Positions 898 through 5,192 of a stretch of 5,192 nt of DNA are shown piece by piece (position 1 is the stretch's first letter; each line of letters opens with the position of its first letter). The stretch is taken from UHGV virus genome UHGV-0385696; one strand, 5' to 3'. Origin of the DNA: a virus. The notes under the pieces were generated by a model, which was not told the DNA's origin, ran no database searches, and saw only the letters and a list, made by a program, of their open reading frames with translations. The position numbers were made by a program, and so were the translations under genes.

Positions 898-2817
898 TCA
901 TCTTAAAACATTACCATCATAACGAGCTAGCGGACGCAATACATCCACATTATTATAAGTAACAGACAATACGTGATTATCTACAGGCTTATCTACAACA
1001 CGCGACAGGGTACGAATATATGTCCAACCTGGAAAACCAAAGGTATATGGAACAGTAACAGTTGAAGAATAAACACCGTAATCAATAAAGAAAGGAAAAA
1101 CCAAATCACCACGAGTAAGATATGAAATCTCAGATAAGCGATAATCTCCTTCTAAAGCCTGACTTTTAGCAACACGACGGAAAACAAGATCTGACGAAGA
1201 ATCTATAAGAAAAGAACCAGCAGTAGACGCATCCTTAACCCTAGAAAGACACGAAAACATAAATCTAAAATCTCCCTGAGAAATATTTGACTGATTAACA
1301 GATATAGACGGCCTAGCTAAAAGATCATCAGATATCCTCTCGACAACTGCTATCGACAAATCATAAGTAAGCGGAGCTTTATCAATATCATATCCTAACT
1401 TAATATGAGCTTTATATAACGCACCGTTAGGTGAAAAACCATCTGGAGCCCAAACATAACCAGCAACAGTCTGCATAGATTCCAAAGTAGTACCTTGAGT
1501 AGTTTCAATATTTGTAGCAGTACCACTAAACCTATAAAGATACAAAGGTTCATCACCGGTAAATGAAAATATACGATTATCGGGATGGCAAGTAACAAAA
1601 TCTACCGATAACTTCTCTTTGGAAATATCGCGCGACAGATGCCAATAATCAAGCGAACGCCTAAAATCTCCAGATACTACATCATTACCATAACGATAAT
1701 CATCATACCTAGGAACATATCCGAAAGCTTCATCTTTAGATCGAGCAACATCAAGTTCACGTCCCTCTATCTCTTGATAACCAAGCGCGGAGAAATGAGG
1801 ATTAAAGAAATCAAAATAAGTCCTACGAGTGAACATCTTAGGACAACCACCGATATTTGACGGACGAGGACGAACAAAATGCAAACCAATAATCAAGCCA
1901 TGTTCATACACATCATACTGAATCTGACCGGTACGATTAACAGACACAGACTTACCATAACTTTCACCAACAGAGCCAAGTTCAGAAGGCGCTGTCTGGT
2001 CTACATCTGAAACATTAAGAACGTAACTATCACCACCTAGATACTTAGGGATCTGTACTCTAGCATCAAGCGGTTCAACTCCAAAGAACTCCTTAATATA
2101 ATTAGCATACTTACCACCAACACGCAAAAGACGCTCACGGAAAGACTGCAAACGCTCAGCTAAACGCATCTCAGGCACAGTAATAGTATTATTACCATCC
2201 ATATCCAACTGAACCATATTACCGTACTGCGTAGAGGTATGAGCGCTAGTAAAGTAATCAAGTCCCTCATTAACATACATCACATTACCAATGTATTTGC
2301 GCAGAGAAGCACTACTAAAATTTTCGGGGCGCAACTGATCAACATAACGTTCATCAAGATCCGACCTCATATAGTAGTGATTATAGATCAGATAATAAGC
2401 TAGTAGGGGAGTAGCATTAAGATCCTTAAGCGCATTAGCAGGATTAACATCATCATTAGATGTAGCAAGTCCAAAATACTCTAGCAAAGGCTTCTCTATA
2501 AAAAGATCCTTAAAGGTCTTGGAACTATACTGTAGATACTTATCCATACCTGGCACAGTCTGACCACTATCAGGATCAGTCAGTATCTGCTCATAGTTAG
2601 GTATCAACAGACGATAAGGCACATAATAGTACCTCTGGAAGTAATCAAGTCTATGCATCAACGGGGATAACATAGGCTGGAGACGTACAAGCGTACTAGA
2701 TTGTACGCGATACTTATCACCGGGAACTACTTCCTGGCAAAGAAATGGGATTAATTGACCCATCTCAAAGCTAGAACGGACTTCATGATCTAGCGAATAC
2801 TTAGTTAGATTTGGCAT
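898..2817 (-). CDS. VP1: Major capsid protein VP1 (phiX174 F-protein homologue), 639 aa.
   Basis: A long intact ORF. Its N-terminus ...FEMGQLIPFLCQEVVPGDKY... matches the conserved Microviridae VP1 N-terminal signature (F.MGQLIP..C.EV.PGD). Start is ATG at 2817-2815 and stop is TGA at 900-898. The gene is tightly packed between the 132-aa ORF (3-nt gap) and VP2 (7-nt gap). Confidence 0.95.
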   Translation of the reverse strand: MPNLTKYSLDHEVRSSFEMGQLIPFLCQEVVPGDKYRVQSSTLVRLQPMLSPLMHRLDYFQRYYYVPYRLLIPNYEQILTDPDSGQTVPGMDKYLQYSSKTFKDLFIEKPLLEYFGLATSNDDVNPANALKDLNATPLLAYYLIYNHYYMRSDLDERYVDQLRPENFSSASLRKYIGNVMYVNEGLDYFTSAHTSTQYGNMVQLDMDGNNTITVPEMRLAERLQSFRERLLRVGGKYANYIKEFFGVEPLDARVQIPKYLGGDSYVLNVSDVDQTAPSELGSVGESYGKSVSVNRTGQIQYDVYEHGLIIGLHFVRPRPSNIGGCPKMFTRRTYFDFFNPHFSALGYQEIEGRELDVARSKDEAFGYVPRYDDYRYGNDVVSGDFRRSLDYWHLSRDISKEKLSVDFVTCHPDNRIFSFTGDEPLYLYRFSGTATNIETTQGTTLESMQTVAGYVWAPDGFSPNGALYKAHIKLGYDIDKAPLTYDLSIAVVERISDDLLARPSISVNQSNISQGDFRFMFSCLSRVKDASTAGSFLIDSSSDLVFRRVAKSQALEGDYRLSEISYLTRGDLVFPFFIDYGVYSSTVTVPYTFGFPGWTYIRTLSRVVDKPVDNHVLSVTYNNVDVLRPLARYDGNVLR

Positions 2818-2820
2818 AGT

Positions 2821-3219
2821 TTATAGATCTTCTATCAGTGAATAATTCAGCAGGCGGGCAAACTCCCAAATGGAGGGCGTCCAACCTTGTTCAACGTGCC
2901 ACATTGAGTAAAGAAGGACAACATACTCAAGGGTAGTATCTATATCCTCATCTTCATTGATCAATTGACCAACAAAGGAGATATAAGCAGCGGTATCGTT
3001 ACCATCTTCTTTCGGTGCCCAATATCGTATTATATCACGAGGTGTTTTTGCATCGTGAAGATTACGATAATTATAGACAAGGAGGAAAGCAGCACGGACA
3101 CCGTACTTCATATCCGAGAACTGACAGAAACCATTCTTAGGCTCTGTTTGACCCTTCCAATTATTAGCAGGGTTATACCGTATATTAAACGGGTTATTTC
3201 TATACTTACAAGTGTTCAT
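2821..3219 (-). CDS. Hypothetical 132-aa protein in the position that gokushovirus VP5 occupies (between Rep and VP1). Function unknown.
   Basis: ATG at 3219-3217 and stop TAA at 2823-2821, 3 nt before the VP1 ATG. It sits 6 nt after the stop of the upstream small ORF. There are no internal stops, and it reads on the same strand and in the same tight packing as the known genes. The sequence MNTCKYRNNPFNIRYNPANNWKGQ...GFCQF...YGVRAAFLLVY has a conserved-looking N-terminal motif and an acidic C-terminal half. I cannot assign it to a family from memory. Confidence 0.6.
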   Translation of the reverse strand: MNTCKYRNNPFNIRYNPANNWKGQTEPKNGFCQFSDMKYGVRAAFLLVYNYRNLHDAKTPRDIIRYWAPKEDGNDTAAYISFVGQLINEDEDIDTTLEYVVLLYSMWHVEQGWTPSIWEFARLLNYSLIEDL

Positions 3220-3355: not shown

Positions 3356-4294
3356 TTACAAAGGGGATTTTTTGTTATTAGCGCGGATAGATTTAGACAT
3401 ACGGTCTTGTATGTAGCGCGCATTTTCCACATACTGTTTTACTGTTAGATTAGCGTCAGACGCGATTTCAGATATACGGGCTAATTTAGCCTCAGGCGAT
3501 ATATCGGGGGCAATAGCTTCGCGCCATATCTCTGGCACAAGCTTCTTTAGATAGATACGCGGTAGCGTATAGGAGTGACCTCCGATAGCATAAGTAGGAT
3601 AGGACTCACCTGGTTCGAGGTGATCCCAAAACCAACGGATAAAGGCAGGCTCACGCAGGAGCTGACAGCCTAAACCTTGGCTAGCAACAATGAAACTAAA
3701 CTTTTTCAGATAATACTCAACTATATAACGATGCTGAAGATCTCGATTAGACCATATATGATTAAAGATATAATCTACTGATCGACCGGAAACCTTGACA
3801 TTACGAAACTGCTTAGTAACATACTTAGATAGATAATGTATCCGAGCAGGAGTGACAAAATCACACTGTATATTACCATAAGTCCAAGTATCAGATATTA
3901 GACGGCGCATATCCGTGAGAGTCATAGACTTATCAAGATATAATATCACATGGTAGTGAGGGCGCAAAGACTCATCGCCATACTCGTGACAGAGGAAATA
4001 CCGAACTTTGGCAGGCTGTAACGCCTTACGAAGTCGCTTAAGCCAGCGCTGATAATGATATTTCAAGGGCATTCGCAAGTTTGAGGAACCGTGAAACGGA
4101 AGACCTAACAAGGCTGTATCATTGTACGTAAGAGTACAGAAAAACGCAGATTCTGAATACTGCAATTCAACTGTATTACGGAACATCCAAGACGATCGCT
4201 TATTAGATTGACAAGCGTAACAAGTACCACAGGGCACTTTGATAAATTTTCCCGTCTTTGGATTCAAGACTTGTATTTGATTAACACATAGCAT
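3356..4294 (-). CDS. VP4: Replication initiation protein VP4/Rep, a rolling-circle HUH endonuclease of the phiX174 gpA-like superfamily, 312 aa.
   Basis: The N-terminal Cys cluster (...VPCGTCYACQ) and motif I FFCTLTYND. Motif II (HUH) is LRPHYHVILY. Motif III, the tandem catalytic Tyr, is YLSKYVTK (compare phiX174 A protein YVAKYVNK). Start is ATG at 4294-4292 and stop is TAA at 3358-3356. Confidence 0.95.
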   Translation of the reverse strand: MLCVNQIQVLNPKTGKFIKVPCGTCYACQSNKRSSWMFRNTVELQYSESAFFCTLTYNDTALLGLPFHGSSNLRMPLKYHYQRWLKRLRKALQPAKVRYFLCHEYGDESLRPHYHVILYLDKSMTLTDMRRLISDTWTYGNIQCDFVTPARIHYLSKYVTKQFRNVKVSGRSVDYIFNHIWSNRDLQHRYIVEYYLKKFSFIVASQGLGCQLLREPAFIRWFWDHLEPGESYPTYAIGGHSYTLPRIYLKKLVPEIWREAIAPDISPEAKLARISEIASDANLTVKQYVENARYIQDRMSKSIRANNKKSPL

Positions 4295-4434
4295 TTACTA
4301 GAATGAGTTAAATGTTTAGTTAGAAAACACGCTTTTATAATTTTCAAAGTAGTATCTTCCAACTCTCTAGGACAAATGTACTACAAATTATTTAGACAGA
4401 CAACACACGATACAAATACATCGTGGTGTCACTT

Positions 4435-4466
4435 GGCGATTACATGTCAAGTAATAGGTAATCGCC
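4435..4466. other. Perfect 9-bp inverted repeat, ggcgattac ... gtaatcgcc, separated by a 14-nt spacer. On the sense strand the spacer contains TTGACA.
   Basis: Positions 4435-4443 are the exact reverse complement of 4458-4466. The spacer is atgtcaagtaatag, and its reverse complement includes TTGACA. The element lies about 140 nt upstream of the Rep ATG on the sense strand. Confidence 0.6.
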
Positions 4467-4500
4467 TTTCTCTCTCGTGATAATTAACGGGCGGGGGGGC

Positions 4501-4520
4501 AGTCCGAAGGACTTATTCGG
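4501..4520. other. Small alternative hairpins in the GC island: agtcc-gaa-ggact (4501-4513) and ccgaa-ggactta-ttcgg (4504-4520).
   Basis: Short 5-bp inverted repeats read directly from the sequence. The two foldings are mutually exclusive. They lie immediately next to the G7 tract at 4493-4499. Confidence 0.4.
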
Positions 4521-4526
4521 CTATTG

Positions 4527-4565
4527 CCATTGCCCCCACCTCAAAAGAGGTGAGGGGGGCAATGG
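4527..4565. other. Extended imperfect stem-loop. The stems are ccattg/caatgg (6 bp), cccc/gggg (4 bp) and cacctc/gaggtg (6 bp), with an AAAA loop (TTTT on the sense strand). A GG internal bulge and an A bulge interrupt the stem.
   Basis: Checked base by base on the given strand. Positions 4537-4542 pair with 4547-4552, 4533-4536 with 4554-4557, and 4527-4532 with 4560-4565. The GC content is far above the genome background. Confidence 0.7.
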
Positions 4566-4595
4566 ACAAGCCATCAGCCCCCGCACCCATTAATT

Positions 4596-4898
4596 TCAAT
4601 CGGCTACGGGAGCCGTACCGGTCTCAACTGGCGCAGGAGCATCAACTTGCACCGGCTGAACCTTAGACAATAGATTATCTACATCAGATACCGTCATATG
4701 CCTAAAATCATACTTAGTAATATCTGGAGTGTCTAGAGTGTCCGAAGTGTCCTCAGACAATGATAATCCAACATTAAGCGCTTGACCGTCCATTAACTGC
4801 TTAACAAGTATAGACAGGTCTACAGTCTGATTCGGTAAAGTGTCAGACACTACACTCTGTGGCACACGAGCCACATACTTATAACTTCTCTTTTCCAT
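4596..4898 (-). CDS. Acidic 100-aa protein with a Pro/Ala-rich C-terminus. It is a candidate internal scaffolding protein (VP3-like) on the grounds of synteny and charge.
   Basis: ATG at 4898-4896 and stop TGA at 4598-4596. The sequence MEKRSYKYVARVPQ...SEDTSDTLDTPDITKYDF...VQVDAPAPVETGTAPVAD has acidic residues about twice as frequent as basic ones. The gene sits between VP2 and Rep, where gokushoviruses carry VP3. I do not recognise any sequence similarity from memory. Confidence 0.5.
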   Translation of the reverse strand: MEKRSYKYVARVPQSVVSDTLPNQTVDLSILVKQLMDGQALNVGLSLSEDTSDTLDTPDITKYDFRHMTVSDVDNLLSKVQPVQVDAPAPVETGTAPVAD

Positions 4899-5016
4899 GA
4901 TTATTAAAATTACGAATCTTGCGAATTATACTAAGAGTCAATGTCACAATAACCCAAACAGCACACGCAAAAAAAGCAACCATAACAACATAGGTTAATA
5001 AATCTGCGAAATTCAT
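4879..5016 (-). CDS. Small single-pass membrane protein of 45 aa, MNFADLLTYVVMVAFFACAVWVIVTLTLSIIRKIRNFNNHGKEKL. The ORF track's 66-aa version begins at a GTG at 5079 inside the VP2 3' end.
   Basis: The ATG at 5016-5014 lies 37 nt downstream of the VP2 stop. The stop TAA at 4881-4879 falls after a 20-nt overlap with the following 100-aa ORF (ATGGAAAAGAGAAGTTATAA). The protein has a short N-terminus, a hydrophobic helix of about 25 residues and a basic C-terminal tail (RKIRNFNNHGKEKL). Confidence 0.4.
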   Translation of the reverse strand: MNFADLLTYVVMVAFFACAVWVIVTLTLSIIRKIRNFNNHGKEKL

Positions 5017-5053: not shown

Positions 5054-5192
5054 TCATTTAATAGTAGCAGCTGCAACACCTAACTTAATAGGAGTAGAAG
5101 ACGCATTCCAAAAGGCATTCCAACCAGCATACCAAGCAGCAGCGTCGGCACGCTCAAAATCAGCTTCACCCGTTTTCTTCCACAACTCAAAC
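5054..5192 (-). CDS. VP2: 3' end of an ORF entering from beyond the right edge of the window, with stop TGA at 5056-5054. If the molecule is circular it joins in frame to the VP2 ORF at positions 890-1, giving a VP2 of about 341 aa.
   Basis: The reverse complement of 5057-5191 translates as FELWKKTGEADFERADAAAWYAGWNAFWNASSTPIKLGVAAATIK*. The leftover 'ca' from positions 2-1 plus the complement of 5192 ('g') forms CAG, which is exactly in this open frame. The other two frames hit stops immediately. Confidence 0.6.
   Translation of the reverse strand, partial: FELWKKTGEADFERADAAAWYAGWNAFWNASSTPIKLGVAAATIK

Follow-up and report, generated by a model that had tools for sequence, protein, structure and literature searches.

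A conserved three-way junction beside the predicted plus-strand origin of a microvirus is a candidate complementary-strand origin

Introduction

Microviruses outside the phiX174/G4 group are among the commonest phages of human-associated microbiomes, and the conversion of their incoming single strand to a duplex is the question that the locus described here raises. The DNA studied, UHGV virus genome UHGV-0385696, is a stretch of 5,192 nucleotides (nt) that was analysed at its full length and is called the window below. Its only large intergenic region carries a GC-rich island with a bulged hairpin, for which a preliminary description, made from the letters alone, had preferred a role as the nicking structure of the replication initiator Rep. 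Our results demonstrate that this hairpin belongs, as one of the arms, to a three-way junction of 114 nt (4482-4595, minus strand), which is real, strongly conserved and more stable on the sense strand, and whose structure is under selection. We tentatively propose that the junction is a complementary-strand (single-strand) origin and possibly also the transcription stop of the operon.

All long open reading frames (ORFs) found by a scan of the window lie on the minus strand, and complete circular genomes named "Microviridae sp.", from human samples, match the window at about 83% identity across 89% of its length. These two results and the gene matches given below identify the window as a microvirus genome with the minus strand as its coding strand. 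In the Microviridae, the coding strand is also the packaged strand.

A three-way junction on the coding-sense strand

The sole long non-coding stretch of the window, 4295-4595, lies between the stop of a 100-amino-acid ORF, the last of the operon (4596-4898, minus strand, no family match), and the start of the gene for Rep, a rolling-circle initiator (3356-4294, minus strand; Pfam REP_ORF2-G2P, E = 2e-18; PHROG 942, E = 7e-50). The GC-rich island within it had been described as starting at 4487; its sequence is as described, while its first segment, cgggcgggggggc, actually starts at 4488, one base later. The homopolymer runs are present as reported, with G7 at 4493-4499, C5 at 4533-4537, G6 at 4554-4559 and a second C5 at 4578-4582. 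When all 5,192 nt were counted, four of the five G or C runs of at least 5 nt fell inside the junction element, whose GC content is 57%, compared with 40.5% in the genome and 33.7% in the remaining intergenic region. The bulged hairpin itself (CCATTGCCCCC-CTC-ACCTC-TTTT-GAGGT-GGGGGCAATGG, 4527-4565, minus strand) has the anticipated three-segment stem on the sense strand (6+5+5 = 16 bp), a 3-nt bulge and a TTTT loop. It lies 30 nt past the stop of the 100-amino-acid ORF and 233 nt ahead of the Rep ATG at 4294.

Folding of the region as both DNA and RNA, which the preliminary description had recommended, revealed the whole junction in the minimum-free-energy structures of the coding-sense strand. 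The DNA fold has a free energy of -38.7 kcal/mol (z = -8.2) and the RNA fold one of -71.9 kcal/mol (z = -8.4), and in neither case did any of 200 shuffles fold as well. The structure consists of a closing stem (P1), a long bulged arm (P2) and a small hairpin (P3), all on the minus strand. The 5' strand of P1 (AATTAATGGGTG-C-GGGGGC, 4577-4595) starts 1 base after the TGA stop codon at 4596-4598, which P1 thus abuts, and forms an inverted repeat with the 3' strand (GCCCCC-C-CGCCCGTTAATT, 4482-4500). The 19 positions of P1 make 18 pairs around a single C.C mismatch, C4583 opposite C4494. P2 (4519-4572) joins a basal helix, GGCT../..AGCC, to the hairpin at 4527-4565 and is supported by DNA folds, RNA folds and inverted repeats, and P3 (AGTCC-TTC-GGACT, 4501-4513) appears in both the DNA and the RNA folds. 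The U/T-rich 3' end of P1 runs on as TTAATTAT in the window and as TTTTTATTAT in two relatives, L005 and L012 (relatives are given by our own numbers where they have to be told apart).

The sense strand is the more stable of the two strands in all nine copies compared with RNA parameters, and in eight of the nine, with one tie, with DNA parameters. Two G.T wobbles in P1, 4589.4488 and 4585.4492, can be read from the sequence on the sense strand only. Among the copies, three P1 positions switch between a G.U-type wobble and a Watson-Crick pair, where the opposite strand would have A.C mismatches. Since the sense strand folds better and the wobbles occur only there, the element appears to act as a single strand of coding sense. 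The active strand would be either the packaged DNA or the mRNA, both of which have this sense.

The junction is conserved as a structure

Relatives were collected from scans of GenBank, IMG/VR, JGI metagenomes and GTDB genomes, together with contigs encoding Rep homologues. The sequencing data in which relatives occur include SRR28705564, SRR28565196, SRR27912339, SRR29183862 and ERZ28634422. Five GenBank microviruses carry the intergenic region at 73-85% identity, and a covariance model, R1, finds 16 sense copies of the junction from related microviruses and prophages, 13 of them distinct. Every distinct copy, folded singly, gives the same three-way junction. The GC-rich element is restricted to relatives with at least 77% Rep identity.

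The preliminary description had suggested looking for covariation among relatives, and the outcome is strongly positive. Standard pairs make up 91.3% of cells in the covariance-model alignment of the 13 distinct copies, as against 44-56% when partners are slid by 1-3 columns, and 24 of the 45 pairs are changed on both sides, as against 2-7 in the slid controls. None of 500 shuffles attains the observed pairing or covariation. Because this alignment is fitted to the structure, RNAalifold was also run on a plain MAFFT alignment, which recovered P1, the apical part of P2 and P3 with 12 compensated pairs.

P1 (helix 1 of the model) is paired in 95.7% of cells with 7 pairs altered on both sides, and its mismatch is conserved as pyrimidine opposite pyrimidine, being C/C, T/C or T/T in every copy. 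The apical 27 nt of P2 (C5-6, the CTC bulge, ACCTC-TTTT-GAGGT and G5-6) are invariant in all but one of the 13 distinct copies; in the exception, L038, whose Rep is 77% identical, the apical part is altered yet still paired. The basal helix of P2 has unrelated sequences in L004 (GATGCCT/AGGCATC) and in L005 and L012 (ACACGGCT/AGCCGTGT) with the pairing kept. In the same three copies, P3 is replaced by GCC-TCA/TAG-GGC, with 3 pairs (helix 4) changed on both sides, and in the MAFFT/RNAalifold alignment its pair 96-104 is UA in 10 copies and GC in 3.

The runs in the arms of P2 also change in a compensated manner. Read in the sense direction, they are C6/G5 in the window and C7/G6 in L013, L018 and L021, and TC6/G6 is also seen. 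The C- and G-runs lengthen together and always leave the 3-nt CTC bulge, and the C-run exceeds the G-run by one base, its last C being part of this bulge.

The predicted plus-strand origin lies in a neighbouring hairpin

A second hairpin (4435-4466, minus strand) lies next to the junction, which ends 15 nt 5' of it on the sense strand. It has a 9-bp stem, GGCGATTAC and GTAATCGCC, and a 14-nt loop, CTATTACTTGACAT. The loop contains ACTTGACAT, a match to the phiX174 nick sequence AACTTG^ATATT; in the phiX174 record, the viral-strand origin is annotated at 4306, within CCAACTTG^ATATTAAT. The motif ACTTGAYAT occurs once in the window, at 4444-4452 in this loop, and the predicted Rep nick falls between G4448 and A4447 of the minus strand. 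The likeness to the phiX174 origin and to the nick stem-loops of Rep replicons thus resides in this hairpin, with ACTTG^ACAT in its loop, and not in the GC-rich element. The phiX174 nick site differs in that it is found within gene A, outside any hairpin loop.

All relatives examined (L032, L033, L035, L038, L044 and L045), some with a Rep identity of only 35-37%, keep the loop with the nick core, and the stems around it are wholly different yet complementary (GCGATTAC, GCGGTTAC, CTGGCAAATAT, CTGGACATT). In all relatives, the hairpin is followed downstream by (A)TGACACC and then a third small hairpin; in the window, these are the box AAGTGACACC (4425-4434) and CACGAT-GTATTTGT-ATCGTG (4406-4425), which together form a conserved origin module (4406-4434, minus strand). 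A scan of IMG/VR with the origin-hairpin pattern returned the same three contigs only.

The nick core ACTTG^ATAT is not found in the GC-rich element, and the TTTT loop holds no nick-like motif. Since the GC hairpin lacks this motif and is limited to relatives with at least 77% Rep identity, the hairpin at 4435-4466 is a much better candidate for the plus-strand origin. Rep almost certainly nicks outside the GC-rich element; the preliminary description had named nicking elsewhere as the outcome that would speak against its proposal, and this is what we find, as far as sequence can show. The broader idea of an origin may still hold, with the junction as a complementary-strand origin instead of a Rep nick site.

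As a separate observation, the loop of the third hairpin is inverted among relatives, with GTATTTGTAT in the window and PV067918 and ATACAAATAC in L001, L002, L003 and L005, while the stem is unchanged (alignment A1, columns 190-206). This looks like a hairpin-loop flip.

Terminators and large folds in distant relatives

The intergenic region was compared for terminators and large folds in relatives with 35-61% Rep identity. In L032 and L035 (Rep 55-56%), a tool scan found a canonical terminator 24-29 nt past the last stop, TCCCTCCTC-TCTC-GAGGAGGGA followed by TTTTTATT in L032 and GGGGGGC-TTCT-GCCCCCC followed by CTTTTTTT in L035, and by eye L045 has a similar one after its last ORF. Large separate folds lie just 5' of the origin hairpin in L044 (266 nt, z = -9.05), L033 (z = -8.9), L035 (z = -6.4) and L045 (z = -4.17).

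The layout in these relatives is therefore promoter, Rep, capsid gene, last ORF, terminator, large fold and origin hairpin. In the clade of the window, the single 114-nt junction fills both the terminator slot and the slot of the large fold. Because the relatives have a large fold separate from their terminators, a folded element that is not a terminator appears to be a general feature beside the origin in this lineage.

A candidate complementary-strand origin

The junction is non-coding and extensively paired within one strand, with the pairing conserved as structure, and it lies just upstream of the plus-strand nick, itself a predicted site. Single-strand origins of plasmids and filamentous phages are usually placed just 5' of the nick site. 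Thus, it is tempting to suggest that the junction is the complementary-strand origin of this phage, a reading that we favour with reserve. We rank it above termination alone because the fold exceeds what a terminator needs, the U-tract is weak in most copies, the stop codon abuts the stem, rolling-circle replicons offer a precedent and the position fits.

One possible mechanism is as follows. When the single-stranded circle enters the cell, the folded junction would remain free of SSB and be recognised by a host priming enzyme, which may be RNA polymerase, primase or a primosome loader of the PriA type. Candidate features by which the enzyme could recognise the junction are the apical hairpin, invariant and with a CTC bulge, and the pyrimidine mismatch that P1 conserves; the enzyme would then make the primer for the minus strand. 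The junction would lie about 30-150 nt 5' of the nick predicted at 4448/4447, and since it is just 5' of this site, it would be displaced last in rolling-circle synthesis, like the single-strand origins of rolling-circle plasmids and filamentous phages. As RNA, in the slot after the last gene, it could also stop transcription of the single operon or protect its 3' end; the two roles are compatible and not exclusive. The priming, the identity of the host factor and the termination are what we infer here.

This role would be the one established for the complementary-strand origins of phiX174 and G4, which in enterobacterial Microviridae are where the host enters to prime the minus strand (PMC9865509, section 3.8, citing Shlomai and Kornberg 1980). 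The primosome-assembly (n'/PriA) hairpin of phiX174 and the primase-recognised hairpins of the G4 type are likewise folded non-coding segments of the packaged strand that are kept as structure. In contrast to these origins, with which it shares no sequence similarity, the junction is one three-way junction and not a single hairpin or three separate ones, it lies directly 5' of the plus origin and not in the F-G spacer, and the host is a Bacteroidales bacterium.

Rolling-circle replicons as a rule have folded, orientation-specific single-strand origins that are read by a primosome, primase or RNA polymerase (PMC4595007). Like the junction, ssoA/U/T/W, sso1 of ICEBs1 and the f1/M13 minus-strand origin are strongly folded, non-coding, variable in sequence and conserved in structure (PMC4595007), and lie just upstream of the nick site. 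They are also orientation-specific (PMC4595007), with which the stronger fold of the sense strand here is consistent, though the mRNA has the same sense. Unlike these origins, the junction lacks conserved single-strand-origin motifs and a promoter-mimicking -33/-7 stem pair, and it is shorter than most. Closer to the present case, conserved and compensated intergenic hairpins upstream of Rep have been tentatively proposed as such origins in other microvirus clades (PMC9865509). The conserved intergenic hairpins of the reekeekee- and roodoodooviruses, uncultured microviruses, lie between the last gene and Rep and have identical loops and compensatory stems (PMC9865509); they belong to other clades, have other sequences and are simple hairpins of 13-64 nt, in contrast to the three-way junction. 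Two large microvirus surveys make no mention of intergenic hairpins.

Several points weigh against an origin. The junction has no sequence similarity to known single-strand origins and matches no Rfam family, and by eye its stems hold no TTTG...TAnnTTTG pair resembling a Bacteroidetes promoter. TAGCGT, of the conserved RSB/CS-6 motifs of ssoA-type origins, does not occur in the 114 nt of sense sequence, where only TAGCCG is seen. The complementary origins of phiX174 and G4 do not adjoin the plus origin. Model R1 finds no match in L032, L033 or L035, so that the large folds of relatives are not detectably homologous to the junction and the argument from them is one of position only. Moreover, no further obvious terminator stands behind the last gene in the clade that has the junction, the frequent G.U-type wobbles and the U-rich tail (TTTTTATTAT in L005 and L012) are as an RNA terminator would show, and a purely RNA-level role accounts for the placement of the junction equally well.

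A bolder form of the origin proposal, which we regard as speculative and rather unlikely, is an origin type of non-enterobacterial microviruses that has not been described. In this form, the DNA three-way junction would mimic a branched replication intermediate and recruit the restart or priming machinery of Bacteroidales (PriA, primase), and the RNA form would terminate the only operon. One compact element would then have a separate job on each nucleic acid. How the single strand is converted is directly testable in this lineage, because the covarying element is delimited, a plus origin can be identified and so can the hosts, which prophages and CRISPR (clustered regularly interspaced short palindromic repeats) spacers indicate to be Porphyromonas-like Bacteroidales. 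The locus would best be filed as a putative single-strand origin and/or terminator of a rolling-circle phage, as a structural variant of unproven function.

Alternative explanations

The strongest alternative, which we consider a lesser but real possibility, is that the junction works at the RNA level only, as an elaborated intrinsic terminator or 3'-end protective structure of the operon from Rep to the 100-amino-acid ORF, without any role in replication. Like a Rho-independent terminator, it is GC-rich, lies on the sense strand of a genome with all genes on the minus strand, begins straight after the last stop codon and has a 3' tail behind the GC-rich P1 that is U-rich to a varying degree, and wobble pairs are common in it. 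It occupies the slot of the canonical terminators of L032 and L035 in a clade without another terminator there. However, termination needs neither 114 nt and 45 pairs nor a branch point, an invariant apical hairpin with a bulge or a conserved mismatch. P1 starts 1 nt past the stop, within the footprint of a terminating ribosome, whereas the canonical terminators of relatives start 18-29 nt downstream, and these relatives hold large folds besides their terminators.

Most copies have a weak U-tract, with 4-5 U in 10 (UUAAUUAU in the window), part of which pairs with an A-run upstream. The tail past the last G-C pair of P1, UUAAUUAUCA, has 5 U in 10 in the window; several copies have 4 in 10, and L005 and L012 have 8 in 10. 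As the preliminary description had pointed out, no T-run follows the hairpin, which argues against a classic terminator, a simple GC-rich hairpin with a loop of 3-8 nt and a run of U within 0-2 nt: behind the apical hairpin comes CAAUGGCAAUAG, the element is branched, and a terminator scan of 4200-4950 does not call it. A survey of host contig L036 gave 12 terminator sites against 11.2 expected. If the junction is a terminator only, it would be an ordinary feature with an unusual shape.

Less probable is a transcript element recognised by protein or RNA, such as an RNase III-type processing site, the site of a phage protein controlling Rep, or a packaging aid. The invariant apical hairpin, the bulge and the mismatch do suggest sequence-specific recognition, and long stems with internal irregularities resemble processing sites. 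However, no known family matches, and the element, placed between the last gene and the promoter-like box, is not part of a leader that it could regulate. Packaging in phiX174 is coupled to Rep-driven synthesis and uses no separate signal, which counts against a packaging role.

That the GC hairpin is the Rep nicking structure, or plus-strand origin, is now very improbable. A conserved intergenic stem-loop upstream of Rep is indeed found in many Rep-encoding single-stranded DNA replicons, but the sole ACTTGAYAT lies in the other hairpin, which is kept down to 35% Rep identity. Similarly improbable is the earlier suggestion that the unequal G/C runs are slippage-prone sites that could modulate the structure, here taken as contingency sites switching it on and off. 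Run lengths do vary among relatives, but the changes are always matched in both arms, with the helix and the bulge preserved, and therefore reflect purifying selection on structure and not switching.

Two further explanations are hardly tenable. One is an attachment site of folded single-stranded DNA for Xer-mediated integration, comparable to the forked attP(+) hairpin of CTXphi. It would suit a temperate lineage with dif-like sites and a forked hairpin with a stem mismatch, but all prophage junctions fall at 4293-4321, about 160 nt off, the element is intact inside prophages, and P1 has no similarity to the attachment core. A small protein-coding gene, as annotated in OP549878 (UYL88490.1, a 65-amino-acid hypothetical protein at L002 498-692, across the GC-rich element and the origin hairpin), is contradicted by a longest sense ORF of 28 amino acids across the element in the window, by compensated +1/+1 indels that shift the frame between the arms and point to selection on the helix, and by substitutions that follow paired helices. 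Since neither the window nor the other relatives have a conserved ORF here, the annotated protein is probably spurious and should be dropped.

Other candidates were also rejected. A search of all Rfam families at E up to 10 on both strands gave chance matches only, the best overlapping one being Pab91 (E = 9.7; 18 bits, where the gathering score is 71), and a scan for tRNA and tmRNA found none. A hammerhead ribozyme was prompted by CUGAUG at the P1/P2 junction and rejected because this motif is not conserved, relatives reading GTGAA, TCGAA, GGTTA or GGTGC there. A G-quadruplex or i-motif was dismissed because the runs differ between relatives and there are not four of them at a suitable spacing on either strand. 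A promoter mimic for priming by RNA polymerase was discarded on the missing TTTG...TAnnTTTG pair. A host repeat or mobile element was also set aside: among 185,579 genomes, the apical motif was found only in a prophage-bearing Porphyromonas contig and in chance matches of high-GC bacteria, and the metagenome scan returned only phage relatives, CRISPR spacers and chance matches.

Genome context, prophages and CRISPR spacers

Besides Rep, the window encodes the major capsid protein (898-2817, minus strand; Pfam Phage_F, E = 6e-55). Between the two genes, a 132-amino-acid ORF (2821-3219, minus strand) has a partial match to PHROG 873 ("endolysin", E = 6e-25) and also matches fragments of tape-measure and head families; it may encode a small cell-wall-acting domain. 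A putative promoter box of the Rep-first operon, TACATTTG (4373-4380, minus strand), has the form TAnnTTTG, the Bacteroidetes -7 consensus. The count of this motif in the window alone is not significant, and a box of the same form is also present between the origin hairpin and Rep in L032, L033, L035, L038 and L044. Tandem Repeats Finder detected no tandem repeats in the window; relatives have 33/66-nt tandem repeats in the pilot-protein gene (L020 3491-3656, L021 8899-8974).

The lineage is temperate, with related prophages in Bacteroidales contigs. Rep homologues with 56-93% identity lie between host genes in bacterial contigs (L033-L036, L041-L043), and in L020, L021, L028, L036 and L042 both prophage ends map to a dif-like attachment (att) site, ACTAAACATTTAACTCATTCTAGTAAAT (4293-4321, minus strand), which overlaps the Rep start and is the point of the prophage junctions. 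The att positions are 5083-5110 and 10210-10231 in L021, 7870-7895 and 13050-13072 in L036, and 7060-7090 in L042, with imperfect direct repeats ACTAAAC..CTCATTCT at both prophage ends. Sites of this kind have already been described for Bacteroidales microviruses by Krupovic and Forterre (PMC3091885).

In the integrated L036 and L042, Rep is found at the left end of the prophage, and the TAnnTTTG box, the origin hairpin and the GC-rich element are found at its right end. By integrating at the att site, the phage thus splits Rep from its putative promoter, to opposite ends, which could silence the prophage without a repressor. Several prophages adjoin a Fimbrillin_C gene, and the contig of one copy bears the name Porphyromonas sp. 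UMGS166. An HTH_3-family gene, either of the host or of the phage, stands beside the prophage in L033 (7176-7694) and L035 (5622-6095), next to the same host gene (DUF4301) and on opposite sides of the prophage.

Long CRISPR arrays occur in two metagenome contigs (L024 3273-10192; L020 727-2223 and 7468-8267) with the 33-nt repeat GTCGCACCCC[A/G]CACGGGGTGCGTGAATTGAAAC, which ends in ATTGAAAC and is presumably type I-C-like. In L020, a complete phage relative (2224-7442) stands between two CRISPR repeats, with its junctions at the prophage att core. The flanks of this insert, of 9 and 25 nt, together have the 34 nt of a normal spacer, and the repeats on its two sides differ by one base. The insert is either an integration into a spacer or an assembly chimera. 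Short matches to the window number six in L020 (29-37 nt, 91-100% identity) and eleven in L024 (32-36 nt, 89-100% identity), and an additional L024 spacer, at 5874-5912, copies the apical GC hairpin (window 4523-4560).

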